DNA from: Parcubacteria group bacterium
GTDB lineage: Bacteria; Patescibacteriota; Minisyncoccia; Phycocordibacterales; DATDWN01
DNA: 64,000 bases
Direction: 5' to 3'
Assembly: GCA_039740895.1 (NCBI GenBank)
Contig: JBCLGS010000002.1
Location: forward strand, 258 to 64,257
Each line of letters opens with the position of its first letter. Within the stretch, counting starts at the first letter, position 1. This document shows positions 6,362 through 55,727 of this stretch, one piece after another. Below the pieces are notes generated by a model. It searched no databases. It was not told the origin of the DNA and worked only from the letters and a program-made list of their open reading frames with translations. The position numbers and the translations under genes were made by a program.

Positions 6362-8038
6362 TTATGATTCAAGAAAAAGTCTAGCCAGTCGTATTTTCAA
6401 ATAACTTGGTTTCTTTTTTTGTTTCTGCAAAATATTATAAACTGGTGACAAAGTTTTTGTTCCTGCTTTTTCAAATGCTGACAAAATATCATCTAGCTCT
6501 GAACGCTTAAACTCACGACGAAGATATGCGAAGTCTGGACACTTGTCTTTTTCATCTTCTAGGATTTTTTCAATATGAGAAACAATTGTTTCTTGTTTCA
6601 ATCCCCTAACTTCAGCGAGTTTCTCAAGTGGCACTTCCAGCCTAAGCATATCTGCTGTAATCTGCTCTGTTGTTTTCTTCAAAAGTTTTTCTTTCTTTTT
6701 TATTTTAACTTTTTCTTCTGGCTCTATTGATTTCAAATATTTTTCTTGTTTTTCACGAAGCTCTGTTTTTAGTATTTCTTTTAATTTTTCCACGGCCTCT
6801 TGTGACATTTTCTGAAACTCTTTGTCATATTCCAAAACCTCTCCGTCCACTTGAAGTGACATATCATTAAACCCCAAAAGTTTCATTCCGTTCAGAGAAC
6901 GAACACGAGATAAAGCCACATATCCCATTCCTTTTACAAACGACTTGGACAAATCCACCTCCATAGCGTCCAGTGACATTCCTTGACTCTTGTGCACGGT
7001 AATAGCCCAGGCTAAGCGAAGCGGAAACTGCGTAATCTCAGCCTTCACTTTTCCATCTTCTTCTATCTGCCATGACTCATGTCTCGCATATATAGTCTTG
7101 CCATTTGTGGTGACTATGACGGGGTCACCGTATGCATTAAAACTATCTACTACTCCGAGCGTTCCGTTCACATATTCACCTTCTTTATCATTTTTGGTAA
7201 ACATCACGCGTGCTCCGATTTTTAAAACTAATTTCTCAGGTGACAAGCAACTTTTTTTCAGTGCTTCAATAATAAAACTTGAACCTCGTGAGGTCATCTC
7301 AAATTGATTTATATCCCCAGGAATTAAATCTAAGTGTCTGCGGTTAATGACATCCACATCTATATTGTGAGTGTGAAGCTTTGTCGGCTTTGCCCCGGAC
7401 TCCGGCTCTTTATTAAATCTAGTTTTTAAAAGTTCAATGGTTTCCTTCGTAACTTTATTCTCGCGAATCTGATTTAATATCGTGAGATATATGTCATCTT
7501 TCTGACGATGTTGTTCGGACAAATGACAAATAGTGAGCTTTGAGTTCTGCCATGAGTCTGCTTTGAAAGCAAATTCACTCTCTGAAATATCGCCTCGCGT
7601 AACAGGTGGGAGTTGAAAAAAATCCCCAGAAAGAATAACTTGCATTCCACCAAAAGGTTTTTCATTTCGTTTGAACTGTCTGCAAATCCATTCAATGAGG
7701 TCCAGTCGGTAATGGTGAAGCATTGAAACTTCGTCAATTATCAAAACTTTTGTTTTTTCAAAACGCTTGTAGAGATACTGTTTCTCCATCATATTTTCAA
7801 TATCATAATCCGTCAGAACATCTCTGATACCGAGCCCAGACCATGAGTGAATAGTCTGACCACCAAGGTGCGTTGCGGCAATACCAGTGGACGCTGTTAC
7901 GGCTACATCCACAGCATTTGATTTCAGATATTTTATATACTCATTTAAGACATGAGTTTTTCCGCTCCCAGCAGGTCCTGTAAGAAAAACATTTTTACCC
8001 AGTTTTAATATATCGAGTGCTTCGCTTTGTAACATCAC
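6362..8038 (-). CDS. Pif1/RecD-family ATP-dependent DNA helicase with C-terminal HTH-like domain
   Basis: 558 aa; Walker A TGPAGSGKTH, DEVSM Walker B, GGMQVILSGDFFQLPPV, and a C-terminal HKSQGMSLD motif typical of AAA_30/UvrD_C_2 (Pif1-like) helicases. Confidence 0.8.
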   Translation of the reverse strand: MMLQSEALDILKLGKNVFLTGPAGSGKTHVLNEYIKYLKSNAVDVAVTASTGIAATHLGGQTIHSWSGLGIRDVLTDYDIENMMEKQYLYKRFEKTKVLIIDEVSMLHHYRLDLIEWICRQFKRNEKPFGGMQVILSGDFFQLPPVTRGDISESEFAFKADSWQNSKLTICHLSEQHRQKDDIYLTILNQIRENKVTKETIELLKTRFNKEPESGAKPTKLHTHNIDVDVINRRHLDLIPGDINQFEMTSRGSSFIIEALKKSCLSPEKLVLKIGARVMFTKNDKEGEYVNGTLGVVDSFNAYGDPVIVTTNGKTIYARHESWQIEEDGKVKAEITQFPLRLAWAITVHKSQGMSLDAMEVDLSKSFVKGMGYVALSRVRSLNGMKLLGFNDMSLQVDGEVLEYDKEFQKMSQEAVEKLKEILKTELREKQEKYLKSIEPEEKVKIKKKEKLLKKTTEQITADMLRLEVPLEKLAEVRGLKQETIVSHIEKILEDEKDKCPDFAYLRREFKRSELDDILSAFEKAGTKTLSPVYNILQKQKKKPSYLKIRLARLFLES

Positions 8039-11659: not shown

Positions 11660-12103
11660 CTAGTCAACTAAAATTGACTTAAAAAAATCCCCAGAAAGAA
11701 TAACTTGCATTCCACCAAAAGGTTTTTCATTTCGTTTGAACTGTCTGCAAATCCATTCAATGAGGTCCAGTCGGTAATGGTGAAGCATTGAAACTTCGTC
11801 AATTATCAAAACTTTTGTTTTTTCAAAACGCTTGTAGAGATACTGTTTCTCCATCATATTTTCAATATCATAATCCGTCAGAACATCTCTGATACCGAGC
11901 CCAGACCATGAGTGAATAGTCTGACCACCAAGGTGCGTTGCGGCAATACCAGTGGACGCTGTTACGGCTACATCCACAGCATTTGATTTCAGATATTTTA
12001 TATACTCATTTAAGACATGAGTTTTTCCGCTCCCAGCAGGTCCTGTAAGAAAAACATTTTTACCCAGTTTTAATATATCGAGTGCTTCGCTTTGTAACAT
12101 CAC
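11660..12103 (-). pseudogene. truncated duplicate of the Pif1-like helicase 5-prime end (first 142 codons, then frame runs into a stop)
   Basis: Lies within direct-repeat copy 2 (11681-12134); identical N-terminal 142 aa to the full-length gene; lacks the rest of the helicase. Confidence 0.8.
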
Positions 12104-15553: not shown

Positions 15554-15610
15554 AGTTTTTAATTCAAATTTGGCGCATTTCGTTGTTGGACTTCAAAAAA
15601 TTATTCTTTT

Positions 15611-15690
15611 CCTTACAGAAACAGTACACCTTTCACATTTTGATTACAAAATGCTCAAGGTCTTGCGAAGTGATAACATCACTTCTCACC
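15611..15690 (+). repeat. family A hairpin repeat, copy 1 (ccttacagNNNcagtacacctttcaca...gaagtgataacatcacttctcacc)
   Basis: ~80 bp unit with two internal hairpins; copy 2 at 15728-15807, inverted copy 3 at 22596-22674. Confidence 0.8.
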
Positions 15691-15727
15691 TTACAATGAG
15701 TAAGGCTTGAATTATTTTTATCGTCCG

Positions 15728-15807
15728 CCTTACAGGCGCAGTACACCTTTCACACTTTGACTACAAAGTATTCAAGGTTTTACGAAGTGATAAAATCACT
15801 TCTCACC
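15728..15807 (+). repeat. family A hairpin repeat, copy 2
   Basis: About 85% identical to copy 1, tandem with a ~37 bp spacer, inside the rpsP-KH-trmD operon spacer. Confidence 0.8.
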
Positions 15808-15908
15808 TAGAACTACACTCAAATCTGAATTAAAAACACAATAACACATTTTTTATAAAAAGAAAAGTCCTGATTTCTCAGAACTTTTTTTTTAAATATT
15901 TATTTAAA

Positions 15909-16293: not shown

Positions 16294-16803
16294 TTACGCA
16301 ATAGTTTCCTCCACAGATGGAGCAACGACTGGGACATCTTGAGCTGGAGTGACTGGCGCCTCAGGATTACCTGATGCGTAAGTGGCCTCAAGAGTACTTG
16401 ATGCATAAGTGGCCTCAAGAGTACTTGATGCATAAGTGTCCACTTCGTTTCCCTTATCCACTTCGTTTCCCTTATCCGCTTCGCTTTCCTTAGCTGGAGC
16501 AGTTACAACAGGAACTTCTTTTACAATGGCATTTTTCAAAGGAAGAACATTGACTTTCTTTCCTTCTATAATTTTCCTACTAACCAAAAGATTATGAACG
16601 GTGCCTGAAGTTTGTGCTCCTTGTAACATCCAATAATTTATTCTCTCTGCATTGAAGACAGCTTTCTCTCCGCTTCTTGAATCATAGTTACCCAAAATCT
16701 CAAGTGATTTACCACTTTTTGTAGAGTTCTTTGAATCAGTTAGAACAAGTCTAAAAACTGGTTCGTGTTTTCGTCCTACTCTTTGTAATCGTATTTTTAA
16801 CAT
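16294..16803 (-). CDS. rpsP: 30S ribosomal protein S16 with ~80-aa repetitive C-terminal extension
   Basis: Start at internal Met MLKIRLQRVGRKHEPVFRLVLTD (canonical S16 N-terminus); the tracked ORF runs further upstream antisense to rnr, which is probably not translated. C-terminus carries tandem DKGNEV x2 and TYASSTLEA x2 repeats. Confidence 0.85.
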   Translation of the reverse strand: MLKIRLQRVGRKHEPVFRLVLTDSKNSTKSGKSLEILGNYDSRSGEKAVFNAERINYWMLQGAQTSGTVHNLLVSRKIIEGKKVNVLPLKNAIVKEVPVVTAPAKESEADKGNEVDKGNEVDTYASSTLEATYASSTLEATYASGNPEAPVTPAQDVPVVAPSVEETIA

Positions 16804-16857: not shown

Positions 16858-18936
16858 ATGAATAAAAATACTCCAGAAAAAAAACAACAAAACGAGAACG
16901 AGTCTTTGATAGGAACAATTAGCGTAAATACAAAAGGTGTTGGATTTTTTGATAGACTGGAAAAAGAAGCTACATTGGAGATTCAACCAGAGAATTTGAA
17001 CCGCGCTTTTCACGGGGATACTGTTGAAGTCACCTCCCTTGGCACAAAAGTGAAAGACAGGGAGCAAGGTAAAGTGGTCAAAATAATTTCAAGAATAAAA
17101 AACAAATTTGTCGGAATAATTCGAGAAACTGACGGCTTAGTTTTCCTCGTTCCTGACGACAGGAGAATGTACACCGATATCAGAATCGCAGACAAAGAAC
17201 TTCCCACTGATTTAGAAAATAAAAAAGTTTTGGTTGAAATAATAGACTGGGAGGGCGACCGAAATGGACCAATCGGCAAAATAGAAAAAGTGGTTGGAAC
17301 CATCGGCGAAAACAATACTGAAATGGAGTCTATCGTTTTGGAAAAAGGTTTCAATGTTGGTTTCCCCGCCGATGTTGAAGAAGAAGCACACAACTTGAAA
17401 ATTAAATTTGACGCTGAGGTAAAATCCGGATTTTCAGATTTGGATGCAGTTCAAGGCGCCGGCGAGGCTCGTGACCAAGCTGTACTTAATGGTACTGCGC
17501 GTGGAACGAACGCAGCCGGCAACGAAGAAATGCGCCAAATCTGGAAATCTGGTCGCAGGGATATGAGGGGAACGACTACAATGACCATCGACCCAGCTGA
17601 CGCCAAGGACTTTGACGACGCCATTTCTTTCAAAGAAATTAGTGAAAATTTATATGAAATTGGAATTCACATCGCCGATGTGTCTTACTTTGTTACACCA
17701 GGAACAGCTTTGGATCGTGAATCAGAAAAGCGAGGGCTTTCAGTGTATCTTGTAGACAGAACGATTCCCATGCTTCCAGAAGTGCTTTCAAATGACCTTT
17801 GTTCACTCAATCCAAATGAAGACAAGTACACTTTTTCAGCGGTATTCAAAATTAATTCTGAAGGTGTAGTGCAAGATAAATGGTTTGGACGAACTGTTAT
17901 ACATAGTGATAAGAGATTTTCATATGAAGAAGCTCAGGATGTTTTAAATGGAAAGTTAGAAAGTCCATACGGAAAACAGCTTCAGACACTCCAAGCTATC
18001 GCCAAAAAACTTGAAAAACAAAAATTCAGTAACGGTGCAATCGCCTTTGAAACAGAGGAAGTGAAGTTTGAGCTAGACGCGACAGGCAAACCTATCCGCG
18101 TTTACAAAAAAAGCCGACTTGATACACATAAACTTGTTGAGGAATATATGCTACTTGCAAACCGTGAGGTCGCAAAATACATTTTCCATTCACAAGGAAA
18201 TATAAATAAAAAAGGTTCGCAGTCCGTTTATCGTATCCACGGCTCACCAGACAAAGATAGAATTCAGAGCCTCGCAATATTTCTAAAAGCTTTAGGTTTT
18301 GATTTGACAAATAAAGATGGAGAGGTTACTTCCCGAGATATCAATAAACTTTTGAAAGAAGTTGAAGGAACACCAAACGAAGAACTTATTAAAACTGCCA
18401 CAATCCGCTCAATGCAGAAAGCTATTTATTCTACAAAAAATATTGGCCATTTTGGGCTTGCTTTCACATTTTACACACACTTCACTTCACCTATCCGCCG
18501 ATATCCAGACTTGCTCGTGCATCGATTCTTACAGCGAGAACTGACTGGCGGAAAAATAGAACAAAATGAATACGAAAAATTTGAACGCATTTGTATGTCC
18601 TCTTCAGAATCAGAAAAGAGAGCTTCAGACGCAGAGCGAGCAAGTATCAAATACAAACAAGTTGAATACATGCAGGGTCATATCGGAGAAAGTTTTGACG
18701 GTATAATTACAGGTGTCACGGAGTGGGGTATCTACATTGAAGAAAAAGAAACCAAATGCGAAGGTATGGCAAAACTTCGCGACCTTACAGACGACTTTTA
18801 TGTTTTAGATGAGAAAAATTACACGATCAGAGGTCAGAAAACTGGCAAAAAATACACCCTCGGCGACAGTGTCAGATTCAAAGTTGTCTCGGCAGACTTA
18901 GAAAGGCGAGTTTTGGATTATGTTTTAATAAGTTAG
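16858..18936 (+). CDS. rnr: ribonuclease R (RNB-family 3-prime to 5-prime exoribonuclease)
   Basis: Cold-shock-like N-terminus, RNB catalytic block MTIDPADAKDFDDAISF, C-terminal S1 domain; start placed at MNKNT (the ORF opens at 16804, abutting the rpsP start; 16831 is another candidate). Confidence 0.88.
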   Translation: MNKNTPEKKQQNENESLIGTISVNTKGVGFFDRLEKEATLEIQPENLNRAFHGDTVEVTSLGTKVKDREQGKVVKIISRIKNKFVGIIRETDGLVFLVPDDRRMYTDIRIADKELPTDLENKKVLVEIIDWEGDRNGPIGKIEKVVGTIGENNTEMESIVLEKGFNVGFPADVEEEAHNLKIKFDAEVKSGFSDLDAVQGAGEARDQAVLNGTARGTNAAGNEEMRQIWKSGRRDMRGTTTMTIDPADAKDFDDAISFKEISENLYEIGIHIADVSYFVTPGTALDRESEKRGLSVYLVDRTIPMLPEVLSNDLCSLNPNEDKYTFSAVFKINSEGVVQDKWFGRTVIHSDKRFSYEEAQDVLNGKLESPYGKQLQTLQAIAKKLEKQKFSNGAIAFETEEVKFELDATGKPIRVYKKSRLDTHKLVEEYMLLANREVAKYIFHSQGNINKKGSQSVYRIHGSPDKDRIQSLAIFLKALGFDLTNKDGEVTSRDINKLLKEVEGTPNEELIKTATIRSMQKAIYSTKNIGHFGLAFTFYTHFTSPIRRYPDLLVHRFLQRELTGGKIEQNEYEKFERICMSSSESEKRASDAERASIKYKQVEYMQGHIGESFDGIITGVTEWGIYIEEKETKCEGMAKLRDLTDDFYVLDEKNYTIRGQKTGKKYTLGDSVRFKVVSADLERRVLDYVLIS

Positions 18937-20179: not shown

Positions 20180-22522
20180 CTACTTCGCTACGGAAACTGC
20201 TTGGTCAAAAGCGACAGAGAGAAGTTTTGAGCCGCCACCCATTCCCATTGTCACGCCGTATAAAATACCAGCGCGGGACATTGTTTCGCGGTTGTGAGTG
20301 ATAACAATAAGCTGAGAAAACTTGGAAAGATTTTCCACCATATCGGCATATTTTTTGGAATTGGCTTCGTCCAGTGCCGCATCTGTTTCGTCCAAAATAA
20401 TAAATGGCGGAGGATTGACTTGGGTCACGGCGAAAATTAAAGCGATGGATGTCAAAGCTCTTTCACCACCAGAAAGCATCATCAATCCCTTCACTTTCTT
20501 TTTTGGCAAACTAACTTCAATATCAATTCCCTCTTCGCTCAACAAAGCTTCTTCATACGCTTGTTCGCCATCGTCCAATAAACCACTTATGTCGTCGTCC
20601 TTTCCGCCAAAGGCGGATCCGTCCGATGAGGCGGACTTTTTTTTCTTTGGTGGATTTATTACAGACAAGTGTGCCTCTCCTCCTCCGAACATCATCGCAA
20701 AATATTCTTTGAATTGTACATTGATTTTCTCCACACCATTTTTAAATTCAGTTGAAAGTCTTTCGTCTAAATCTTTTATAAGCTCTGTCAGTGACACAGC
20801 CGATTGTTCCAAATCAATAATTTCCTTTGCAAGAAATTCATCTCTCTCAGTAGCATCTGTGTATTCTTTCATTGTTTCGGAACCGCCAATACCTCCAGCG
20901 TCTTCCAATCGGATTTTTATTTTCTCAATAGCCCGCCTGCGTTCTTCCTGGATATTACGTGGCTCATCATAATTAAAAGGAATACTTTCTCCGCCAAAGG
21001 CGGATCCGTCCGATGAGGCGGAAAATTGCAAAATACTCGTACCAAGCATCATCCCAAGCTCTGTAAGTTCCCGCTTGAAATCTTCTTTGATTAACCTAAG
21101 TGTTTCTTCTTCGGCAGAAACAGTATGAAGTTTTGACCGAGCTTCCTGTCCTCCCGCCATAATTCTGAAAATGTCTTTTTCTGCATCACGATTTGAATCT
21201 TTTTCTTTTTCTATTTTATTTTTCAGTGAATTATACTGCGTTGCAAGTTCTGTCTCACGAGATTTCATTCCATTTATTTTTGAATCAATTTCACCCTTTG
21301 AACTCTTCAGATTTTCAATATCCCTCTCCGCCTCAGCAAGAAGTGACACCTGCCCGACTACATTCAGGCGGGTGTCCACTCGGTCTTTATTATCATCAAC
21401 AAAATCTTGTAGGGCTCTACTTATTTCATCAATGACTCGCAAGAGTGTCTCAGTGTCTCTGGTCTCTCTAGCTTGAACTATTTTTTCCTCCAAACTTTTT
21501 TGCAAAGCTTCCACTGAAACTAGAGTAACTGTCTTGTGTAAATAAGATGAGGTGACTTCTTCTTGTTTTCGGACCATTCGTGCGAGGGAAGAAAGTTCAC
21601 CGTCAATTCTTCCAAACTCTTTGAAGAGCGAATCTTTTTCTTCGCGGATATCATGCAAAGATTTTTCAAGAATCATCAGTTCGTCACTGACCAAGTCTTT
21701 GTGCGTAACATTTTCTAAAACAGACCGAGCTTTCGTCAATTCTTCTTCAAGTTTTTTTATTTCTTTTTCCAGTGGTTCTTTTTCACTAGATATTTTTTCT
21801 GATTTACTTTTTATATATTGGCCTTCGCGATTGCAGTATTCCATTGCCCTCTGCTTTAAATCCTCTTTCATCTCTAATGTCTTCTGGACTTTCTCTACTT
21901 GTTTTCTCAAAAATTTAATATGAGGCATTATTTCGCGACGGAGCGATTCTACCTGAGCAATATTCTCCCGAGTTTTTTCTAACTTTCTCTGACTCTCATG
22001 TTTTTTATATTGATATAGTTTCAAGCCAAGTGCATCCTCTATCATTGCCTTACGCTCTTTGATACTAGCGTTCAAAATTCTATCCGCTTCACCTTGAGAA
22101 ATAATATGATGTCCAGAAGCTCCAATATGTGCTGAGTTCAAAAGCTCCACTACATCTCGAAGTCGCACATGGGAACCATTTATTAAATATTCATTTACAG
22201 AATCTCGATGGACCACTCGCTCTATAACAACCTCCTCAAAATCAACCGGTAAAAATCGTGAGGTATTGTCTAAGACAAGCTTAACGCTTGCCCGATTCGC
22301 CCGGGGTGAATCACCAGTGCCGTTGAATATCAAATCCTCACCCTTTTTTCCTCGAAGAGACTTGATAGACTGTTCGCCGAGCACAAATCGAAAGGCCTCA
22401 GCCACATTGGACTTGCCTGAGCCGTTTGGACCTACGATAGCAGAAATAGGAGATGAAAATGTCAGCTCGCTTTTCTTAGCAAATGATTTAAAACCAGTAA
22501 GCTCGATACTTTTCAGATACAT
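20180..22522 (-). CDS. smc: SMC-family chromosome segregation ATPase (short form)
   Basis: N-terminal Walker A GPNGSGKSN, long coiled coil, C-terminal signature LSGGERALTSIAL and Walker B ILDETDAALD; contains two in-frame 35-bp palindromic inserts. Confidence 0.85.
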   Translation of the reverse strand: MYLKSIELTGFKSFAKKSELTFSSPISAIVGPNGSGKSNVAEAFRFVLGEQSIKSLRGKKGEDLIFNGTGDSPRANRASVKLVLDNTSRFLPVDFEEVVIERVVHRDSVNEYLINGSHVRLRDVVELLNSAHIGASGHHIISQGEADRILNASIKERKAMIEDALGLKLYQYKKHESQRKLEKTRENIAQVESLRREIMPHIKFLRKQVEKVQKTLEMKEDLKQRAMEYCNREGQYIKSKSEKISSEKEPLEKEIKKLEEELTKARSVLENVTHKDLVSDELMILEKSLHDIREEKDSLFKEFGRIDGELSSLARMVRKQEEVTSSYLHKTVTLVSVEALQKSLEEKIVQARETRDTETLLRVIDEISRALQDFVDDNKDRVDTRLNVVGQVSLLAEAERDIENLKSSKGEIDSKINGMKSRETELATQYNSLKNKIEKEKDSNRDAEKDIFRIMAGGQEARSKLHTVSAEEETLRLIKEDFKRELTELGMMLGTSILQFSASSDGSAFGGESIPFNYDEPRNIQEERRRAIEKIKIRLEDAGGIGGSETMKEYTDATERDEFLAKEIIDLEQSAVSLTELIKDLDERLSTEFKNGVEKINVQFKEYFAMMFGGGEAHLSVINPPKKKKSASSDGSAFGGKDDDISGLLDDGEQAYEEALLSEEGIDIEVSLPKKKVKGLMMLSGGERALTSIALIFAVTQVNPPPFIILDETDAALDEANSKKYADMVENLSKFSQLIVITHNRETMSRAGILYGVTMGMGGGSKLLSVAFDQAVSVAK
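20601..20635. repeat. GC-rich palindromic element inserted in-frame in smc (copy 1; encodes SASSDGSAFGG)
   Basis: TTCCGCCAAAGGCGGATCCGTCCGATGAGGCGGA contains the TCCGCC-AAA-GGCGGA hairpin; identical copy at 20988-21022. Confidence 0.8.
20988..21022. repeat. GC-rich palindromic element inserted in-frame in smc (copy 2)
   Basis: 35/35 match to copy 1, 387 bp away, same frame. Confidence 0.8.
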
Positions 22523-22583
22523 TATATTTAGTATACCAAAAAAATGAACGGTCGTGGAAATTTTTTATAAATTTTCAGATTTG

Positions 22584-22745
22584 AGCCAAGGTCGAGTGAG
22601 AAATGATATTATCATTTCGCAAGACCTTGAGCATTTTGTAATCAAAATGTGAAAGGTGTACTGCTCCTGTAAGGAGGAAAATTAAAAAATGATTAGAGCC
22701 ATACTTAGTGGTATGGTGAGAATTATTTTTGTTTTTTAGACGATG
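22584..22745 (+). repeat. composite intergenic element: family B structured repeat (copy 1) with a nested inverted family A insertion (22596-22674)
   Basis: ccaaggtcg lead-in, then inverted family A, then the gagccatacttagtggtatggtgag inner hairpin flanked by an AT-rich outer stem. Confidence 0.75.
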
Positions 22746-22790
22746 CTCCCTGTTTGCTCAAGAGCGAAGCGATTGATTTGCAAACAGCAG
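22745..22790 (+). repeat. family D hairpin element gctccCTGTTTGCtcaagagcgaagcgattgatttGCAAACAGcag; inverted copy at 49884-49929
   Basis: 8-bp stem; the second copy carries a compensatory C:G to T:A change (ctgtttgt / acaaacag). Confidence 0.75.
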
Positions 22791-22805
22791 TCCTTTAGGG
22801 CTCCA

Positions 22806-22863
22806 TTATTTTCTTATGAGCGAAGCGAGTTAGAAAATAAGCAGTACCCTTGTGGTAAGATTG
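22806..22863 (+). repeat. family C element ttttCTTATgagcgaagcgagttagaaaATAAGcagtacccttgtggtaagattg; second copy 23738-23797
   Basis: ~58-bp near-identical copies in the smc-rnc and rnc-nusB spacers. Confidence 0.8.
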
Positions 22864-22882
22864 TCCAAATATGAAAGTTTAT

Positions 22883-23578
22883 TTAATTCCAGCCCCGAAC
22901 TTCAAGTGCCAATCGGGCCGCCACCTGTTCCGCATCTTGCTTTGAATCGCCTACACCTTCAGCAACCAAATTTCTGCCAATATAAACACCAACGGTGAAT
23001 TTCTTGTCATGGTCTGGACCAGTTTCTTTGATCGTTTTGTATGATGGAGTAACACCATCAAACTCTTGAGCTTTTTCCTGAAACAATGATTTTGAATCAA
23101 TAAAACTTTTTGCAGAAATAATATCATCAATAAGTGGAGTGAAATTTCTTTCGATAAAACCCTTGGCAGAATCATATCCTTGGTCAAGATAAATTGCTCC
23201 GATAAGTGCCTCTAAGACATTGGCTAAAATATATTGTCTAGCTCGTCCTATGTCCTTACTCTCACCTTTTGAAAGAAGTAGATAATCGTTTATAGAAAGT
23301 CTGGTGGCAATCTCTGAACATGTAGTAGCATTCACGAGCGAAGAACGATAAGCGGTCAACTCTCCTTCCGGCTTAGTTGGGTATTTTGCGTATAGGAAGT
23401 CTGTGATAACAAGCTCCAAAACAGCGTCGCCTAAAAACTCTAATCTCTCATTATGAGAAAGTCCTGATGCTTTGTTTTCGTTGATATATGAGCGGTGTAC
23501 AAAAGCTTGCGTCAAAAGACCAACATCTTTGAATGCTAGCCCCGCTTTCATTTGAAATTCTGTAAAATCTATAATCAT
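22883..23578 (-). CDS. rnc: ribonuclease III
   Basis: RNase III signature ERLEFLGDAVLELVITDFLY and C-terminal dsRBD; start taken at MIIDFTEF (the ORF extends to 23623). Confidence 0.9.
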   Translation of the reverse strand: MIIDFTEFQMKAGLAFKDVGLLTQAFVHRSYINENKASGLSHNERLEFLGDAVLELVITDFLYAKYPTKPEGELTAYRSSLVNATTCSEIATRLSINDYLLLSKGESKDIGRARQYILANVLEALIGAIYLDQGYDSAKGFIERNFTPLIDDIISAKSFIDSKSLFQEKAQEFDGVTPSYKTIKETGPDHDKKFTVGVYIGRNLVAEGVGDSKQDAEQVAARLALEVRGWN

Positions 23579-23651
23579 GTTTGTAATATAACACAAAACC
23601 AGCTTATTGCAAAAAACCCTCAATTCTTTGCCGAGCTCTGTGGATTTTTGA

Positions 23652-23726
23652 CCAAGGTCGCGTATAAAATTTAAAAATGTGCGAAGCCATACTTAGTAGT
23701 ATGGTGACAAACATTTTTAAATTTTA
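23652..23726 (+). repeat. family B structured repeat, copy 2
   Basis: Perfect 14-bp outer stem AAATTTAAAAATGT / ACATTTTTAAATTT enclosing the conserved GCCATACTTAGTAGTATGG inner hairpin; preceded by ccaaggtcg. Confidence 0.8.
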
Positions 23727-23737
23727 GACAATGCTCC

Positions 23738-23797
23738 ATTATTTTCTTATGAGCGAAGCGAGTTAGAAAATAAGCAGTACCCTTGTGGTAAGATTGG
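23738..23797 (+). repeat. family C element, copy 2
   Basis: See 22806-22863. Confidence 0.8.
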
Positions 23798-23812
23798 ACA
23801 AAAAGACCAGAG

Positions 23813-24706
23813 TTATTTTTTCAATAGAATGTTAATAGCTTTCGTGACCAGCGGCATAATGTCATTATAAAAATTCAAGTCAAGTATATCACCCATTTTA
23901 AACCACTTTGCGTCATCCAGTCCACCCGAGTTTTTTAATTTGATTTCTACATAAGGCGCTTCCACTAGATAATATGTAACATTCTTTTTTATCTTTCCTT
24001 TTTCTGGGTGGTATGTCAGATATTCATTCGAACCAAGTTTTTCTTTTACTTCCACAGGTAAGGAAATCTCATCCTCTATTACCTGAGCAACTTCTTTTTC
24101 TGGATCCGTTCCTGTGATGTGTCCCTTTGATAAAGTCCATCGCCCAAAAACATCATGGACAAGTGCAAGATAAACATCTTCTCCTTCTTTAGCGTAAACC
24201 ACAGCTCCTGCGAGATATTCAATAGGAATATTTACAGGACCCATCTCTTTGTTTTTCTTGTCTTTAGAAGTTTCGTCTTTGCCGGGCTCGCCAAGCTCTT
24301 TGTATACTGCTCCAAGAACTCCGTTTACAAACTTACTGGAAGTATCCCCTCCAAATGTTTTAGAAAGCTCAATAGCTTCATTGATAGCTACCTTTGGTGG
24401 CACTTGTCCTCTGTCGGAAAAAAGGAGCTCATAAAGGCCAATACGGAGAATATTTCGGTCCATCACAGAGATTTTATCTATTGGCCAGTCAGGGGCAGCC
24501 TTCTCTATTATTAAATCAATATCTTTTTGTTTGTCTATAACCCCTTTCATCAAATTTTCCATAAAAGAAAAATCGCCCATGCCAGCTCCAAATTCTTTGG
24601 CATTGCGATTAAATATCTCCACAGATTCTGAGGATGTTTTCTGATTGAAGTCCCATTCAAATAAGGACTGCAGAACTATGCTTCTGGAAAGGTGCCTGTT
24701 AGCCAT
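23813..24706 (-). CDS. nusB: transcription antitermination factor NusB fused to a C-terminal Nudix-like domain
   Basis: N-terminal ~140 aa is NusB-like (RSIVLQSLFEWDF, DRNILRIGLYELLF); C-terminal ~150 aa carries a degenerate Nudix-box-like segment (GHITGTDPEKEVAQVIEDEISL). Confidence 0.7.
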   Translation of the reverse strand: MANRHLSRSIVLQSLFEWDFNQKTSSESVEIFNRNAKEFGAGMGDFSFMENLMKGVIDKQKDIDLIIEKAAPDWPIDKISVMDRNILRIGLYELLFSDRGQVPPKVAINEAIELSKTFGGDTSSKFVNGVLGAVYKELGEPGKDETSKDKKNKEMGPVNIPIEYLAGAVVYAKEGEDVYLALVHDVFGRWTLSKGHITGTDPEKEVAQVIEDEISLPVEVKEKLGSNEYLTYHPEKGKIKKNVTYYLVEAPYVEIKLKNSGGLDDAKWFKMGDILDLNFYNDIMPLVTKAINILLKK

Positions 24707-25213: not shown

Positions 25214-25852
25214 TTATTTTATGCAATTCTTACAAAAAGACTTTCTGTGGAGTTTTGACAAACCAAATTTCTTTATAGCTTCTCTGTGTTTTTTCGTTCC
25301 ATAACCTTTGTGTTCATGGAAACCATACTCTGGAAATTTTTTGTGGGATTTGACCATAATAGCGTCGCGAGAAACTTTTGCCAAAATACTTGCCCAAGCA
25401 ATAATCTGCTCCTTTTCATCACCTTTAATTATTGTTTTCTGATTTACAAATTCCTTCGGAGCTTTTAGCCCTCCATCAAGAAGAATCTGATAACTATCCA
25501 AGGACCGCTCTTGGATAACTTTTTTTATACCTTTCTCAATCGCATATTTAATAGCAAATGAAAGACCTTTTTTATCAATTATTGTATTTGAAATATGTAC
25601 AATCTGAATCTGCAGATGGTCCCCATCTGCAGATTCTGCAGATGGGGACCATCTGCAGATTTCATTTAAATAGTTTGAATACTTTTGACGGGATTCGAGA
25701 GAGAGTTTTTTGCTGTCTTTTCCCAGTGGTGGTAGGCGTTTGTCTTTCTTTAGTTTGGTATAAAACTTTGACTGACAAACAACCACACAGACTGAAACTG
25801 GACCCGCCAGTGGCCCTCTCCCAACTTCATCTATTCCGACAATATATTTCAT
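25214..25852 (-). CDS. rnhB: ribonuclease HII, carrying an in-frame palindromic insertion
   Basis: N-terminal GIDEVGRGPLAGPV RNase HII motif; two adjacent copies of CTGCAGATGG(TCC/GGGA)CCATCTGCAG at 25610-25659 encode SAESADGDHLQIQ inside the protein. Confidence 0.85.
   Translation of the reverse strand: MKYIVGIDEVGRGPLAGPVSVCVVVCQSKFYTKLKKDKRLPPLGKDSKKLSLESRQKYSNYLNEICRWSPSAESADGDHLQIQIVHISNTIIDKKGLSFAIKYAIEKGIKKVIQERSLDSYQILLDGGLKAPKEFVNQKTIIKGDEKEQIIAWASILAKVSRDAIMVKSHKKFPEYGFHEHKGYGTKKHREAIKKFGLSKLHRKSFCKNCIK
25610..25659. repeat. two abutting 23-bp perfect palindromes CTGCAGATGGTCCCCATCTGCAG inserted in-frame within rnhB; a third copy at 55335-55357 inside another gene
   Basis: Exact palindrome; the same 23-mer recurs within the CDS 55158..55556, in both cases encoding SADGDHLQ. 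Confidence 0.85.
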
Positions 25853-38365: not shown

Positions 38366-38414
38366 TTCACTAATTTATAAGATTAGTAATAAACTTCCAA
38401 ATCTGGATGCAGTT

Positions 38415-38510
38415 CTAGGCGGAAAGTGAAAAATAATCCGAGCCTTACTTTTTGTAAGGTGAGGATAATTTTTTGCTTTCCAACGACGAAATGCGCCAGA
38501 TTTGGAAGTT
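38415..38510 (+). repeat. family B structured repeat, copy 3 (between convergent genes)
   Basis: gaaagtgaaaaataat-ccgaGCCTTACtttttGTAAGGtgagg-ataattttttgc ... ccaacgacgaaatgcgccagatttggaagtttt; the inner stem CCTTAC/GTAAGG covaries with CCATAC/GTATGG in the other copies. Confidence 0.75.
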
Positions 38511-39749
38511 TTAAACAAAGGTCAGAGCTTTACCCATCTTGCCGGCTCTACCAGTTCGTCCTATTCGGTGAACATAGTCCTCGTAAGTAGCTGGTAAGTC
38601 AAAGTTTATTACATGTGAGACATCGTTGATATCCAAACCTCTAGCAGCTACATCTGTAGCTACAAGAACCTGAACACGATTGTCTTTAAAAAGCCCCAGT
38701 GCTCGTTGTCGTCCAGACTGGTTTTTATTTCCATGAATTGACTCGGCCTTGAATCCTCTTTTCGTCAGATTTTCAGAAAGCTTTTCTACGCCGTGTTTTG
38801 TTCGTCCGAATATAAGAACTTTGTTGAATTCTTTTTGAATAAGCAAGGAGTGAAGAATGTCCATTTTATCATCACCGTGTTTGACACGGACAACATCTTG
38901 GTCAATATTTTTTGCAGTATCTTGCGTTTTCACTGAAATCATTACAGGGTTATTTAAAAATTCTTTAATGAGCCCTTGAATTTCTTGTGAAAAAGTCGCT
39001 GAGAAAAATAATGTATGTCTATCTTTGGGCATCTGAGCCATCATAAAACGCATATCGTTTATAAATCCCATATCGAGCATTCTATCTGCTTCGTCCAACA
39101 CAACAGTTTTGAAGTGTATAAGGTTTAGAACTCTTCGCTCTATCAAATCCTTTATTCTTCCTGGAGTACCTATAACAAATTCATTTCTAAATTTAAGGTC
39201 TCGGATTTGCTTACCGATGGGTGAACCACCGACAACGCAAGTTGAAAATAAATTGAGACCAATAATGAAGTCTTTCAACTCTTCTTGAATCTGAATTGCT
39301 AATTCTCTTGTAGGAACAACAATGAGAGCATTCTCATTTGGCTGTGAGAGTATCTTATGAATTAAAGGAATAAGAAATGCCGCAGTCTTGCCTGTACCGG
39401 TGTTGGCAATACCAACAACATCTCTTCCAGTCAAAACATTTGGAATAGCCTTATCCTGAATTGGAGTTGGTAGTACATAACCCTTTTTAATAATGTTTGT
39501 CTTTAACCTTTGGTCTATGACGAAGTCAGCAAATTTATTTTCTGGTATGTATTTTGGAGCAGATTCGATAGCTACCGCTCTGTTTACAAATCGAGCGTGA
39601 TCAATTCTGGCTGTTTTTCCACCACCAAATCCTCCACGAGAATGACTTCGTGAATTTCTTGAAGAAAATCCCTGAGATCTTCCTCCACCATTAAAACTGG
39701 GTTTTCTAAAAACCCGTCCTTTCGGACTATTATTTCTTCTTGTTTCCAT
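38511..39749 (-). CDS. DEAD-box ATP-dependent RNA helicase with RG-rich N-terminus
   Basis: Q-motif, ANTGTGKT Walker A, VLDEADRMLDMGF DEAD box, SAT, HRIGRTGR. Confidence 0.9.
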   Translation of the reverse strand: METRRNNSPKGRVFRKPSFNGGGRSQGFSSRNSRSHSRGGFGGGKTARIDHARFVNRAVAIESAPKYIPENKFADFVIDQRLKTNIIKKGYVLPTPIQDKAIPNVLTGRDVVGIANTGTGKTAAFLIPLIHKILSQPNENALIVVPTRELAIQIQEELKDFIIGLNLFSTCVVGGSPIGKQIRDLKFRNEFVIGTPGRIKDLIERRVLNLIHFKTVVLDEADRMLDMGFINDMRFMMAQMPKDRHTLFFSATFSQEIQGLIKEFLNNPVMISVKTQDTAKNIDQDVVRVKHGDDKMDILHSLLIQKEFNKVLIFGRTKHGVEKLSENLTKRGFKAESIHGNKNQSGRQRALGLFKDNRVQVLVATDVAARGLDINDVSHVINFDLPATYEDYVHRIGRTGRAGKMGKALTFV

Positions 39750-49655: not shown

Positions 49656-49753
49656 ATTACTTAACGAAATAGTCTAAAGGCTTTTTGTAAAGTTTTGCGA
49701 ATTCTTTCAACTGTAAAACATCAAATCGTCTTTATCCTGATTCTATTTTTTGG

Positions 49754-49822
49754 CTGCGGGACTTGGGGTCGAACCAAGATTCACGCTTTCAGAGAGCGTT
49801 TGCCTACCATTAGCAGATCCCG
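49754..49822 (-). tRNA. tRNA-Gln (anticodon CUG)
   Basis: Cloverleaf: acceptor GCGGGAT/GTCCCGC, anticodon stem ACGCT/AGCGT with loop CTCTGAA (CUG), T-arm CTTGG-TTCGACC-CCAAG; no encoded CCA. Confidence 0.7.
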
Positions 49823-49883
49823 CAATATTTTATTATCAAACTTACTAATCCCCCTCTATTTTAAGTAATATTTAGTTGCGTTA

Positions 49884-49929
49884 CTGCTGTTTGTATTCAA
49901 TCGCTTTGCTCTTGAACAAACAGGGAGCC
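49884..49929 (-). repeat. family D hairpin element, inverted copy 2
   Basis: ctgctgtttgtattcaatcgctttgctcttgaacaaacagggagcc is the reverse complement of 22745-22790 with a compensatory stem change. Confidence 0.75.
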
Positions 49930-49977
49930 TTACCCGCCCGCCACGCAAGCCGAAGTGTGCGAGGCGTTGCGGGCGGG

Positions 49978-49999
49978 CCATTAGCAGATCCCGCAATAC
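49978..49999. repeat. 21-bp duplicate of the 5-prime end of tRNA-Gln (ccattagcagatcccgcaata), 155 bp beyond the intact tRNA
   Basis: Exact repeat of 49806-49826; the intervening segment holds a family D hairpin and a GC-rich inverted repeat (cccgcccgc...gcgggcggg). Confidence 0.8.
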
Positions 50000-52841: not shown

Positions 52842-52902
52842 GTTATGTATATATATTATCTTAAAAATCTATCTAAGTCACTATTGAAACTTTCTAATTT
52901 TA

Positions 52903-53008
52903 GCCAAGGTCAAGGCGAAATGTGAAAAATAATTCGAGCCATACTTGTCGTATGGTGAGGATTATTTTTCACATTTCAACGCAGAGATTGGCCAAATTTG
53001 GAAGTTTC
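52903..53008 (+). repeat. family B structured repeat, copy 4
   Basis: ccaaggtcaaggc-GAAATGTGAAAAATAAT-tcgaGCCATACttgtcGTATGGtgagg-ATTATTTTTCACATTTC-aacgcagagattggccaaatttggaagtttcag; 17-bp perfect outer stem. Confidence 0.8.
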
Positions 53009-53687
53009 AGATTATGTATTTTCCTTGCTTATCATCTCGCACAATACGACCATTCTCCATAGTAATCACTCTTTTCCCTAGTGAATCAATTACCCCCTTA
53101 TTATGTGTAGTCAGAATCACTGTCGTTCCAAGGTCGTTTATTTTCTTCAATATCTGGACAATATCATATGTATTATGTGGGTCTAGGTTTCCAGTGGGTT
53201 CGTCGGCAATAATGACATCTGGCTGGTTCACTATGGCTCGTGCAATAGCCACTCTCTGCTTCTCTCCTCCAGAAAGCTCGTGTGGGAAGTTCCATATTTT
53301 CTTTCCTATATCAACCAATTCCAAAACATGTGGCACATCTGCTTCTATTTCGTCATCAGATCGTCCCGCTGCTTCCATAGCAAAAGCAATGTTTTCATAA
53401 ACATTTTTATTTGGAATAAGCCGAAAATCTTGAAAAACTACGCCAATTTTTCGACGAAATTCGTTTATCTGATTTTTATTTAGAGTGTGAATATCTGTTG
53501 ATTCAAAAAATATTTTACCCTCGCTTGGCTTTTCCTCAGCCAAAAACATTTTAAGAAGAGTTGTCTTGCCAGCACCAGAATGTCCCACAATAGAAACAAA
53601 TTCCTTTGGCTCAACTGAGAAAGAAATGTTTTCCAAAGCTATTGAATTGTCCGCGTAAATTTTAGATACTTTATCAAAATAAATCAT
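53007..53687 (-). CDS. ftsE: cell division ABC transporter ATP-binding protein FtsE
   Basis: Walker A GHSGAGKTT, signature LSGGEKQRVAIARA, Walker B IIADEPTGNLD; start taken at MIYFDKV. Confidence 0.85.
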   Translation of the reverse strand: MIYFDKVSKIYADNSIALENISFSVEPKEFVSIVGHSGAGKTTLLKMFLAEEKPSEGKIFFESTDIHTLNKNQINEFRRKIGVVFQDFRLIPNKNVYENIAFAMEAAGRSDDEIEADVPHVLELVDIGKKIWNFPHELSGGEKQRVAIARAIVNQPDVIIADEPTGNLDPHNTYDIVQILKKINDLGTTVILTTHNKGVIDSLGKRVITMENGRIVRDDKQGKYII

Positions 53688-53826
53688 ACTTTCATTATAC
53701 TCTAAATGCCACAATGCACCAAATACTTTTTGCAGACTATTTCCGCACAACGGAAATCGAACAGAAATAATGTTTTGTCGTAGACAAGAACATTTTTCTG
53801 AAGGCAGAAAAGTTTTGGGACCAAAA

Positions 53827-55157: not shown

Positions 55158-55556
55158 TTATTTCAATCCCTTACAGTTTCTGCCTGCAACAAATCCTGCT
55201 TTTTTTGCTTCTTCAATCGATGCAAATTTAATCTGATTTTCTGGCTTTATCATCTTCACTGTTCCACACCACGGAAAATAATACTTTTTACCATTTTTGG
55301 ACCCAATCACTTCCCCGCTCGTATTATTTGACTTCTGCAGATGGTCCCCATCTGCAGAAGTCAAAGGAGTGCTATTCACCACGGTGGCAGATTGGTCGCT
55401 GTTGGGGTAAATAATTTTAATAGGAGATTTGTGCTCTTCCAAAGCTGAAAGTCGGCCCAAAGCGAAGAAAAGACTGGCTATTACAAGAATTAGTACCAGT
55501 GTGTAGAATTGTTTGATTTGGAGCTTTACTTTTTCTACAATATCCTTTATACTCAT
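55158..55556 (-). CDS. membrane-anchored hypothetical protein with an Ada-like metal-binding C-terminus; carries an in-frame 23-bp palindrome
   Basis: N-terminal TM helix; C-terminal KKYYFPWCGTVKMIKPENQIKFASIEEAKKAGFVAGRNCKG resembles the Ada N-terminal zinc-binding domain pattern (weak); the palindrome at 55335-55357 encodes SADGDHLQ. Confidence 0.3.
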   Translation of the reverse strand: MSIKDIVEKVKLQIKQFYTLVLILVIASLFFALGRLSALEEHKSPIKIIYPNSDQSATVVNSTPLTSADGDHLQKSNNTSGEVIGSKNGKKYYFPWCGTVKMIKPENQIKFASIEEAKKAGFVAGRNCKGLK

Positions 55557-55613
55557 GACATTGTAATTTTAACAATTATTCGGAATAAATACGAGGCACA
55601 CAGATACGGATGC

Positions 55614-55705
55614 GATTCAAGGCGGATAAGAAAAAGAATTGGAGACATACTTAGTGGTATGTTGACAATTATTTTTTGAAATCCAACGCAGAAGCACGCC
55701 GGATA
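55614..55705 (+). repeat. family B structured repeat, copy 5 (upstream of rpmA)
   Basis: attcaaggcggataag-AAAAAGAATT-ggaGACATACttagtGGTATGTtgac-AATTATTTTT-tgaaatccaacgcagaagcacgcc. Confidence 0.7.
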
Positions 55706-55727
55706 TGTGAGCCGTAACACAAAAAAA

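Follow-up and report, generated by a model that had tools for sequence, protein, structure and literature searches.

The window, the whole 64,000-nucleotide stretch of Parcubacteria group DNA that was analysed, carries on its minus strand smc (20180-22522), rnc (22883-23578) and a nusB gene fused to a NUDIX domain (23813-24706), and the Pfam assignments agree with the gene names given in an earlier, sequence-only reading of this region. The smc-rnc spacer occupies 22523-22882 (360 nt) and the rnc-nusB spacer 23579-23812 (234 nt). The earlier figures were 360 and 190 bp; the former holds, whereas the latter has to be replaced by 234 nt, counted from the ATG start, because the longer ORF with a TTG start (22883-23623) had been taken as rnc. 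The start of rnc is the ATG at 23578, and the proteins of relatives align from residue 1 there. Both spacers are indeed unusually long, as had been claimed: in 80 orthologous rnc loci the nusB-rnc spacer mostly measures -7 to ~90 nt (median ~30 nt), and in one relative, L054, the corresponding spacers are only -5 and 45 nt. Whole-spacer folds lie far below those of shuffled sequences, with z=-7.2 for smc-rnc and z=-5.7 for rnc-nusB. A conserved AGTATANCAAAAA is located upstream of smc in the window and in relatives.

The two spacers were proposed to be homologous through the string ccaaggtcg, a hairpin of family B and a sequence of family C, the longer one carrying in addition an inverted family A unit and a family D hairpin. 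All of these correspondences were recovered, at levels well above chance. The string ccaaggtcg is found in both spacers, the B hairpins (22678-22749 and 23666-23737) are 81% identical over 72 nt, and module C at 22801-22857 is identical to 23734-23790 in 57/57 positions, or 64/64 counting the flanks. In the longer spacer, the A unit (22596-22675) matches the reverse complement of 15610-15689 with 94% identity over 80 nt (E=2e-29) and that of 15728-15806 with 86% identity, and the D unit (22745-22776) matches the reverse complement of 49897-49928 with 94% identity over 32 nt. Two points escaped the earlier reading: a dispersed element that has a closing stem makes up the shared 'scaffold', one copy in each spacer, and the repeat family occurs away from rnc too.

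Each spacer contains a single long hairpin element with its own closing terminal stem: E1 (22569-22880, plus strand) and E2 (23636-23812, plus strand). As read from the sequence, E1 is a composite element filling the smc-rnc spacer. Its closing stem is formed by 22569-22583 and 22866-22880, and its 3' end stops 2 nt short of the rnc stop codon (22883-22885). The 5' junction, agccaaggtcga (22584-22595), is the counterpart of the canonical GGATGCAGTTCAAGGCG in an alignment with E2, with E4 and with the copies at two loci from other genomes, L002 and L029. Module A (22596-22677) is nested in this junction; it is followed by the core hairpin of family B (22678-22745), which comprises the second stem, the tip GAGCCATACTTAGTGGTATGGTGAG and then agacgatg. 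Module D (22746-22800) is nested in the 3' junction, and module C (22801-22857), the sequence shared with E2, comes in tandem after it; all these parts are on the plus strand. In the predicted fold of E1, which reaches -102 kcal/mol on the forward strand vs -78 on the reverse, AAGGTGTACTGC of A pairs with GCAGTACCCTT of C, and the covariance model described below matches the core (22678-22743) with 38 bits. In E2, 23636-23650 pairs with 23799-23812 on the plus strand to close the element, the core (23666-23731) is matched with 43 bits, module C (23734-23790, plus strand) is nested in the 3' junction, and the 3' end abuts the nusB stop codon (23813-23815). A promoter-like site is present on the minus strand at 23612-23585, inside the 57 nt between E2 and the rnc ATG.

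Cutting A, D and C out of E1, and C out of E2, leaves canonical units of 118 and 120 nt, which bears out the nested, modular structure suggested earlier. The two stripped units are 75% identical to each other and show 57-77% identity to the other five copies in the window, except for a lone 30% pair that involves the ORF-embedded copy E6. Module-free units were also found in relatives: positions 3262-3374 of L002 correspond to E2 without C, with the same junction reading agacgatg|agattgcc, and L055 has a plain unit, devoid of A, D or C, at the position of E1, to which it is probably orthologous. Since the two copies of module C are identical, this module is recent or homogenised, and the base copies are old, as their 57-77% identity within the window (apart from the lower E6 pair) indicates.

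The canonical unit is an imperfect palindrome over its whole length of ~115-125 nt and consists, in order, of a closing stem, a conserved 5' junction, a second stem, a tip, the return strand and a conserved 3' junction. The sequences of both stems vary between copies. The 5' junction is GGATGCAGTTCAAGGCG or its variant CCAAGGTCG, and the 3' junction is CAACGAAGAAATGCGCC, or AGACGATG...AGATTGG. The tip has the form GAGCCATAC-loop-GTATGGTGAG (GAG-CCATAC-loop-GTATGG-TGAG) and is predicted to form tandem G.A pairs and a G.U pair. Terminal inverted repeats are present, reading TAGGACTT...AAGTCCTA in one subfamily, and many copies are flanked by the self-complementary TA.

With filters off, the covariance model matched exactly seven copies in the 64 kb of the window; they span 115-312 nt and together make up ~1.9% of it. 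Besides E1 and E2, these are three canonical plus-strand copies, one copy inside an ORF and one with A modules. E3 (38391-38512, 101 bits, fold z=-11.3) overlaps with its 3' stem the stop codon of an opposite-strand gene at 38511-39749. E4 (52885-53009, 97 bits, fold z=-10.1) has TG...CA in place of the flanking TA, which lengthens the palindrome; its terminal palindrome TGAAAC...GTTTCA includes the TGA stop of the minus-strand gene 53007-53750. E5 (55596-55714, 92 bits) is in sense orientation, 14 nt before the ATG (55729) of rpmA, encoding L27. E6 (17432-17547, plus strand, 77 bits) lies in frame within the RNase R ORF, between the CSD2 and RNB domains assigned by Pfam. E7 (15562-15830, minus strand, 35 bits) is a base element with two A modules, located in sense orientation in the spacer between a KH-domain gene and trmD, with its 3' end 8 nt from the trmD ATG. 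Six of the seven copies thus lie on the C-rich plus strand, and the GC skew of the window never switches sign. The model is strand-specific, as it scores E3 with 101 bits forward vs 13 bits in reverse.

Across 46 copies, 88% of the cells fall into standard pairs vs 64% in shuffles, and compensatory changes were found at 25 of the 28 stem pairs (23 of 28 according to RNAalifold). When the partner columns were slid as a control, pairing fell to 31-43%. The forward strand is more stable than its complement in 38/38 copies, with a mean difference of 11.3 kcal/mol (Wilcoxon p=8e-8), and holds about three G.U pairs vs about one on the reverse strand; the G.U pair of the tip is kept in 41 of the 46 copies. 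The structure of the element is under selection, on one strand. Its best-conserved parts are the internal loops, while the stems covary and the termini are variable.

Module A comprises three hairpins and extends from GTGAGAA (5') to CCTGTAAGGAGG (3'). The A module of E1, over its full 22596-22677, shares 91% and 85% identity with the two A copies of E7. The latter are located on the minus strand at 15725-15806 and 15608-15689, and compensatory changes distinguish the three A copies of the window. In an alignment of seven A copies, hairpins 1 and 2 covary, and the covarying hairpins are separated by the conserved single-stranded blocks TTCGCAAGACCTTGA and AAAGGTGTACTG...CCTGTAAGG. Elsewhere, A was found in L015 (twice, within ttttttaagag...ctcttaaaaaa hairpins), L029, L027 and L011; in L027 and L029 it occupies the same junction as in E1. 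Its insertions are always of one polarity, beside GTGAGAA or an AAGG-like sequence. Module D is composed of CTCC, a stem with a GAGCGAAGCGA loop, GCAGTCC and a small hairpin. Its 72% identity to C marks the two as the same type of module, present in tandem in E1. A free-standing D-type module lies on the minus strand beside tRNA-Gln (49880-49927), and a D copy is also present in L035; A and D therefore occur independently of the base element.

The occurrence of the family outside the window was assessed by an exact scan for the tip pattern in 185,579 species genomes, which gave 50 loci. The pattern has 18 fixed bases and was run over 596 Gb, for which ~35 chance matches were estimated; true loci were told from chance by their hairpin context and by covariance model R1. 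About 28 true loci were retained, in metagenome-assembled genomes (MAGs) nearly all labelled Patescibacteria, including Saccharibacteria, Parcubacteria/Paceibacterota, Taylor-, Yanofsky- and Azambacteria; the exceptions are a few unclassified MAGs and one labelled Gammaproteobacteria. Within 372 kb of tip-pattern loci the model found 37 matches, seven of which had not been picked by the pattern. Other genomes contain several copies per 8-kb locus, and the density is uneven, with seven per 64 kb in the window vs one per 20 kb in L165. A covariance model of the copies and a search for more of them, both suggested in the sequence-only reading, have thereby yielded the seven window copies and the ~28 Patescibacteria loci. 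At the Rfam gathering thresholds the whole window gave tRNAs only, and no relevant Rfam match was obtained over 22400-23950 at E<=10 or, in E-value mode, for the L004 copy, L013/L025 and the L045 spacer; the best match, RtT to the L004 copy (16.8 bits vs a threshold of 45, E=0.64), was set aside as a generic long-hairpin match. Plasmid and phage BLAST with E1 gave no match. In viral contigs the tip pattern had 0 matches, and the 34 matches of the junction pattern were all rejected by the covariance model as chance. In the literature searched on repeats or MITEs of CPR, Parcubacteria or Saccharibacteria, no description of such elements was found.

Three results support the view that the element inserts: most rnc loci are empty, RNase R orthologues have a gap at the site of E6, and copies occur in frame inside genes. 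Among the 80 orthologous rnc loci (577 kb), two carry a copy, both beside rnc: L055 has one just past the rnc stop, the position of E1, and L093 one just past the nusB stop, the position of E2. L053 retains only a 3' remnant, and L054 and L057 are empty sites, that of L054 holding a small terminator hairpin. A syntenic relative, L045 (an uncultured Candidatus Saccharibacteria MAG with 83% identity in RNase III, 79% in TrmD, 68% in SMC and 65% in RNase R), has unrelated sequence and no copy in its smc-rnc spacer; a copy directly adjoins its smc stop, a site that lacks one in the window. The idea that the element is tied to the autoregulation of rnc was considered and dropped: both filled relatives have their copy beside rnc, but this is not significant (roughly p=0.07) given the few spacers per locus, and L055 is probably orthologous to E1.

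Every RNase R orthologue shown lacks the E6 segment, the gap being 36-45 residues long (mostly 38). In-frame units of other genomes interrupt the Pfam domain of RNase HI (at position 57/58), separate the two domains of an Fe/Mn superoxide dismutase (SOD) and lie within RsmA/KsgA. The in-frame copies in these four proteins are all in sense orientation and use the same reading frame, LDAVQGA...NEEMRQ. An exhaustive profile search with the encoded peptide gave 64 matches among 1.84 billion representatives; one of them, P0029, is an ARM/HEAT-repeat false positive. Since most are short spurious ORFs of 36-156 aa over intergenic copies, or ORFs ending within a copy, copies inside real ORFs are rare. 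No transposase or other mobilising gene was found near any copy, with 18 window proteins scanned, and none of these 18 is a Y1_Tnp-type or RAYT protein. No unambiguous target-site duplication was seen at the examined copies. The base copies are diverged within the genome and do not indicate a recent burst.

The copies are placed in a polar manner. Of 43 copies, 23 have an opposite-strand ORF whose stop codon begins between -7 and +8 nt from the element's 3' end, and for 12 of these the stop is a TAG supplied by the CTA with which the element ends; in five further copies an opposite-strand stop lies 27-55 nt from the 3' end. At the 5' end, a stop on the same strand lies no more than 10 nt away in two copies only, both near short dubious ORFs. 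The median gap to the neighbouring gene is 6 nt at the 3' end vs 96 nt at the 5' end, and the smaller gap is at the 3' end in 29 copies and at the 5' end in 8 (p=7.5e-4, a conservative value, as two neighbours were mis-called). Antisense copies outnumber sense copies ~4-5 to 1. The usual setting is between two tandem genes of the opposite strand, flush with the upstream stop, and the remaining 45-60 nt of such spacers hold the promoter of the next gene, as illustrated by the conserved AGTATANCAAAAA ahead of smc and the promoter-like site ahead of rnc. A minority of copies, in sense orientation, directly adjoin a start codon, as at rpmA, trmD, recG and RNase Y. No conserved promoter motif was visible in the 5' flanks of the copies. 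Purifying selection acting on a compact genome can account for where the copies lie; a symmetric mechanism cannot account for the antisense bias.

We consider that these repeats probably constitute a new family of nested, non-autonomous palindromic elements similar to MITEs, RPEs and Correia elements. The MITE-like repeated insertion proposed in the sequence-only reading is supported by the two filled sites among 80 rnc loci, the gap in RNase R orthologues, the in-frame copies and the nested modules. The elements are short, non-coding and multicopy, with terminal inverted repeats and insertion polymorphism at orthologous sites, and those in functional genes are inserted in frame and keep the ORF open. 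Each rnc spacer holds one copy of a dispersed non-coding imperfect palindrome of ~115-125 nt, common in Patescibacteria (CPR), which behaves like an insertion element that comes and goes at orthologous sites and occasionally lands in frame in genes. According to this model, the junction loops would serve as landing sites for modules A and C/D, which would have invaded old base units later, and the nesting of modules in these loops produces the mosaic of the rnc spacers. The spread, now or once, may have been mediated by a trans-acting enzyme recognising the folded single strand, presumably by the conserved junction and the tandem-GA tip rather than by the termini. Given the compactness of the genome, an insertion might persist only if it lies immediately after a stop codon, the remainder of the spacer being occupied by the promoter of the next gene. 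The antisense bias could be due to strand-specific insertion or to selection that removes the more stable strand from mRNAs. If transcribed, the long hairpins would be expected to be substrates of RNase III, by analogy with Correia elements. There are observations that go against a mobile element: no mobilising gene among the scanned proteins, no clear target-site duplication, diverged copies, the rarity of copies in real ORFs, and a polarity unexpected for symmetric selfish DNA.

Several known repeat systems resemble this family in part. RPEs are palindromic elements inserted in frame in unrelated housekeeping genes of Rickettsia and translated as an extra peptide, with no known transposase (PMC10969869). 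The likeness, which concerns features and not sequence, lies in palindromes of ~100-150 bp, a reduced genome and in-frame insertion in housekeeping genes (here RNase R, RNase HI, SOD and RsmA); however, the host clade is different, and copies within ORFs are exceptional here and unusually frequent for RPEs. To our knowledge, polarity relative to stop codons has not been described for RPEs. The Correia elements (nemis) of Neisseria are foldback MITEs that are co-transcribed with genes and whose long hairpins are cleaved by RNase III (PMC10969869). They share with the present family the length of ~100-150 bp, the adjacency to genes and TA at both ends, but their conserved part is the termini, in contrast to the internal junction and tip here. 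ERIC/IRU elements are imperfect palindromes of ~127 bp in transcribed intergenic regions, which affect mRNA stability when at gene 3' ends, as in Yersinia (PMC10969869). Compared by description only, the present elements are likewise imperfect palindromes in intergenic positions at gene 3' ends, whereas their nested modules are atypical for ERIC.

Mosaics of a few module types inserted into one another downstream of genes are formed by BIME/REP in E. coli and by BOX, RUP and SPRITE in pneumococcus. Variable module combinations, elements within elements and location downstream of genes are common to these systems and to the present family. REP units, however, measure 20-40 nt and are tied to RAYT transposases, unlike the 115-nt unit described here, and BOX has a linear A-Bn-C arrangement, whereas the modules here are nested in a hairpin. 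Membership in REP/RAYT was rejected on the length of the unit, compared with a 20-40-nt palindrome with a GTAG-type head, and on the lack of a RAYT-type protein among the scanned proteins. In typical MITEs the termini are conserved. The combination of conserved loops, covarying stems and a single-strand fold is characteristic of a functional structured RNA and not of a typical MITE. Other candidate classes were discarded by inspection: integron attC sites (RYYYAAC at the 5' and GTTRRRY at the 3' side), because on either strand of the consensus the 5' arm has GTT and the 3' arm AAC, the wrong order; K-turns, as there is tandem GA yet no 3-nt bulge; hammerhead and other small ribozymes, whose core motifs are absent and which gave no Rfam match; a group II intron remnant, which the GTGAG at the start of A and a GAGCC...GG tip resembling domain V might suggest, although the size is far too small and a bulged helix is lacking; and a TIGR or CRISPR-like array, as the copies are not tandem.

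The rival with the most in its favour, possible although rather unlikely in our judgement, is that the elements are structured RNAs in multiple copies, acting in cis or encoded as small RNA genes (the latter being the other option of the sequence-only reading), in which the junction and tip bind a protein or form an active site. A and C/D would then be optional RNA domains and not insertions, and the placement at gene ends would serve mRNA processing, 3'-end formation or antisense control. The base element and module A alike have conserved unpaired nucleotides and covarying stems, which speaks for such RNAs, as do the strand-specific stability with its conserved G.U pairs, the polar placement flush with stop or start codons, the same position of module A in L027 and L029, its predicted contact with module C in E1, and the conservation across several Patescibacteria lineages. 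Their well-folding strand, however, is mostly antisense to the flanking genes and would require a promoter of its own, for which no conserved motif is visible; moreover, some copies lie in frame inside ORFs and are translated, orthologous sites are mostly empty, and the density varies as widely as between the window and L165. A more far-reaching synthesis, which we advance as an unlikely speculation, is that the base unit is more than selfish DNA, namely a mobile structured nucleic-acid module conserved across Patescibacteria. The invariant junction and the tandem-GA tip would be its specific core for binding or catalysis, and A and C/D would be docking accessory domains. The polar, mostly antisense placement flush with stop codons would stem from a novel strand-specific insertion that targets gene ends, or from a gene-end regulatory RNA system particular to these ultra-small genomes.

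It is improbable that the elements are single-stranded DNA hairpin sites for an HUH/Y1-type enzyme of the IS200/IS605, REP-RAYT or attC kind, with strand, orientation and target set by replication and not by transcription. This explanation would fit the folding of one strand with G.T-tolerant stems, the internal rather than terminal position of the conserved features, the bias of the window copies (6/7) to the C-rich plus strand under a GC skew of constant sign, and the insertion of module A in one polarity beside GTGAGAA or AAGG-like sequence. It is opposed by the GC skew itself, according to which the folding strand is the leading-strand template and is exposed only briefly, by the lack of a Y1 or RAYT gene among the scanned proteins, by the absence, on inspection, of attC core sites in the required order, and by the size of REPs, 20-40 nt against a 115-nt unit. 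Ordinary intrinsic (bidirectional) terminators or mRNA 3'-end stabilisers, or a local duplication of spacers around rnc, are very improbable. The location right after stop codons, the T-rich sequence following the closing stem in the window copies and the small terminator hairpin at the empty L054 site would suit terminators, but GC-richer copies have no T-runs on either strand, a terminator scan finds none at the element ends, and copies are also located inside ORFs and upstream of start codons. The recurrence of the core sequence in dozens of unrelated loci and genomes argues against local duplication.

Patescibacteria genomes are among the smallest and most streamlined of bacteria. Despite this streamlining, ~2% of the window consists of nested hairpin repeats, which lengthen spacers and add 38-residue segments to RNase R, RNase HI, SOD and RsmA. 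In public databases they give rise to dozens of 'hypothetical protein' entries that are spurious. A covariance model for this family, which has no Rfam match, would clean up annotation and provide a marker for strain comparison. Three features are left unexplained by a simple MITE model, namely the conservation of the core, the folding of a single strand and the antisense position of copies flush with stop codons; they may indicate a novel mode of insertion or an RNA function at gene ends.

In the composite element E1, which lies in the smc-rnc spacer (22569-22880, plus strand) and carries the nested modules A, C and D together with the core hairpin, the segment AAGGTGTACTGC of the three-hairpin module A (22650-22662) is complementary to the segment GCAGTACCCTT of the small hairpin module C (22840-22851). 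In the predicted minimum-energy fold of E1, these two segments pair with each other and enclose both the core hairpin and module D. A common frame, CTCC...GCAGTAC, is shared by C, D and module A when the latter is read in reverse.

The conserved tip of the second stem of the base element, GCCATACTTTGTGTATGGTGA, was also found within a long hairpin in two Oscillospirales MAGs (L013, 4685-4779; L025, 6352-6464). These hairpins score 39 and 32 bits, respectively, against the covariance model built from the copies of the base element, and neither of them has a match in Rfam; they are either distant relatives of the base element or products of convergence. In L045, the syntenic locus of an uncultured Candidatus Saccharibacteria MAG that is the closest titled relative, the 335-nt smc-rnc spacer lacks the hairpin element. 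In antisense orientation to smc and rnc, this spacer contains a promoter of consensus sequence (TTGACA-17-TATAAT), downstream of which lie approximately 230 structured nucleotides and a terminator-like hairpin. The whole feature (L045, 7060-7362), for which neither an Rfam match nor a homologue elsewhere among the loci or in the window was found, is a candidate small RNA of no recognised family.

A D-type module (49880-49927) and a GC-rich hairpin (~49931-49977) occupy the approximately 150 nt that separate tRNA-Gln(ctg) (49751-49824, minus strand) from a 20-nt exact duplicate of its own 5' part, located ahead of the gene at ~49979-49998. The arrangement, which spans 49751-49998, resembles the outcome of an insertion event within the tRNA gene by which the 5' end of the gene was regenerated.

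Small palindromes were also observed within coding sequences. The smc gene contains two in-frame copies of a 33-nt palindromic unit, TCCGCCTCATCGGACGGATCCGCCTTTGGCGGA (minus strand; 20603-20635 and 20990-21022), which are identical at 33 of 33 positions and both encode SASSDGSAFGG. The 25-nt palindrome TCTGCAGATGGTCCCCATCTGCAGA, present as a tandem pair inside the RNase HII gene (25608-25664) and as a single copy (55333-55363) inside the ORF 55158-55556, is a further small palindromic repeat located in coding sequence.

Among the other repeats in the window, the PIF1-like helicase gene (6362-8038) and its truncated 147-aa copy (11660-12103) are a recent partial duplication; they share 300 identical nucleotides (7616-7915 versus 11681-11980), as well as upstream sequence. 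A 27-nt unit is repeated three times in tandem (16358-16438) within a 568-nt stretch upstream of RNase R, and the 297-aa protein encoded at 23813-24706 is NusB with a C-terminally fused NUDIX domain.
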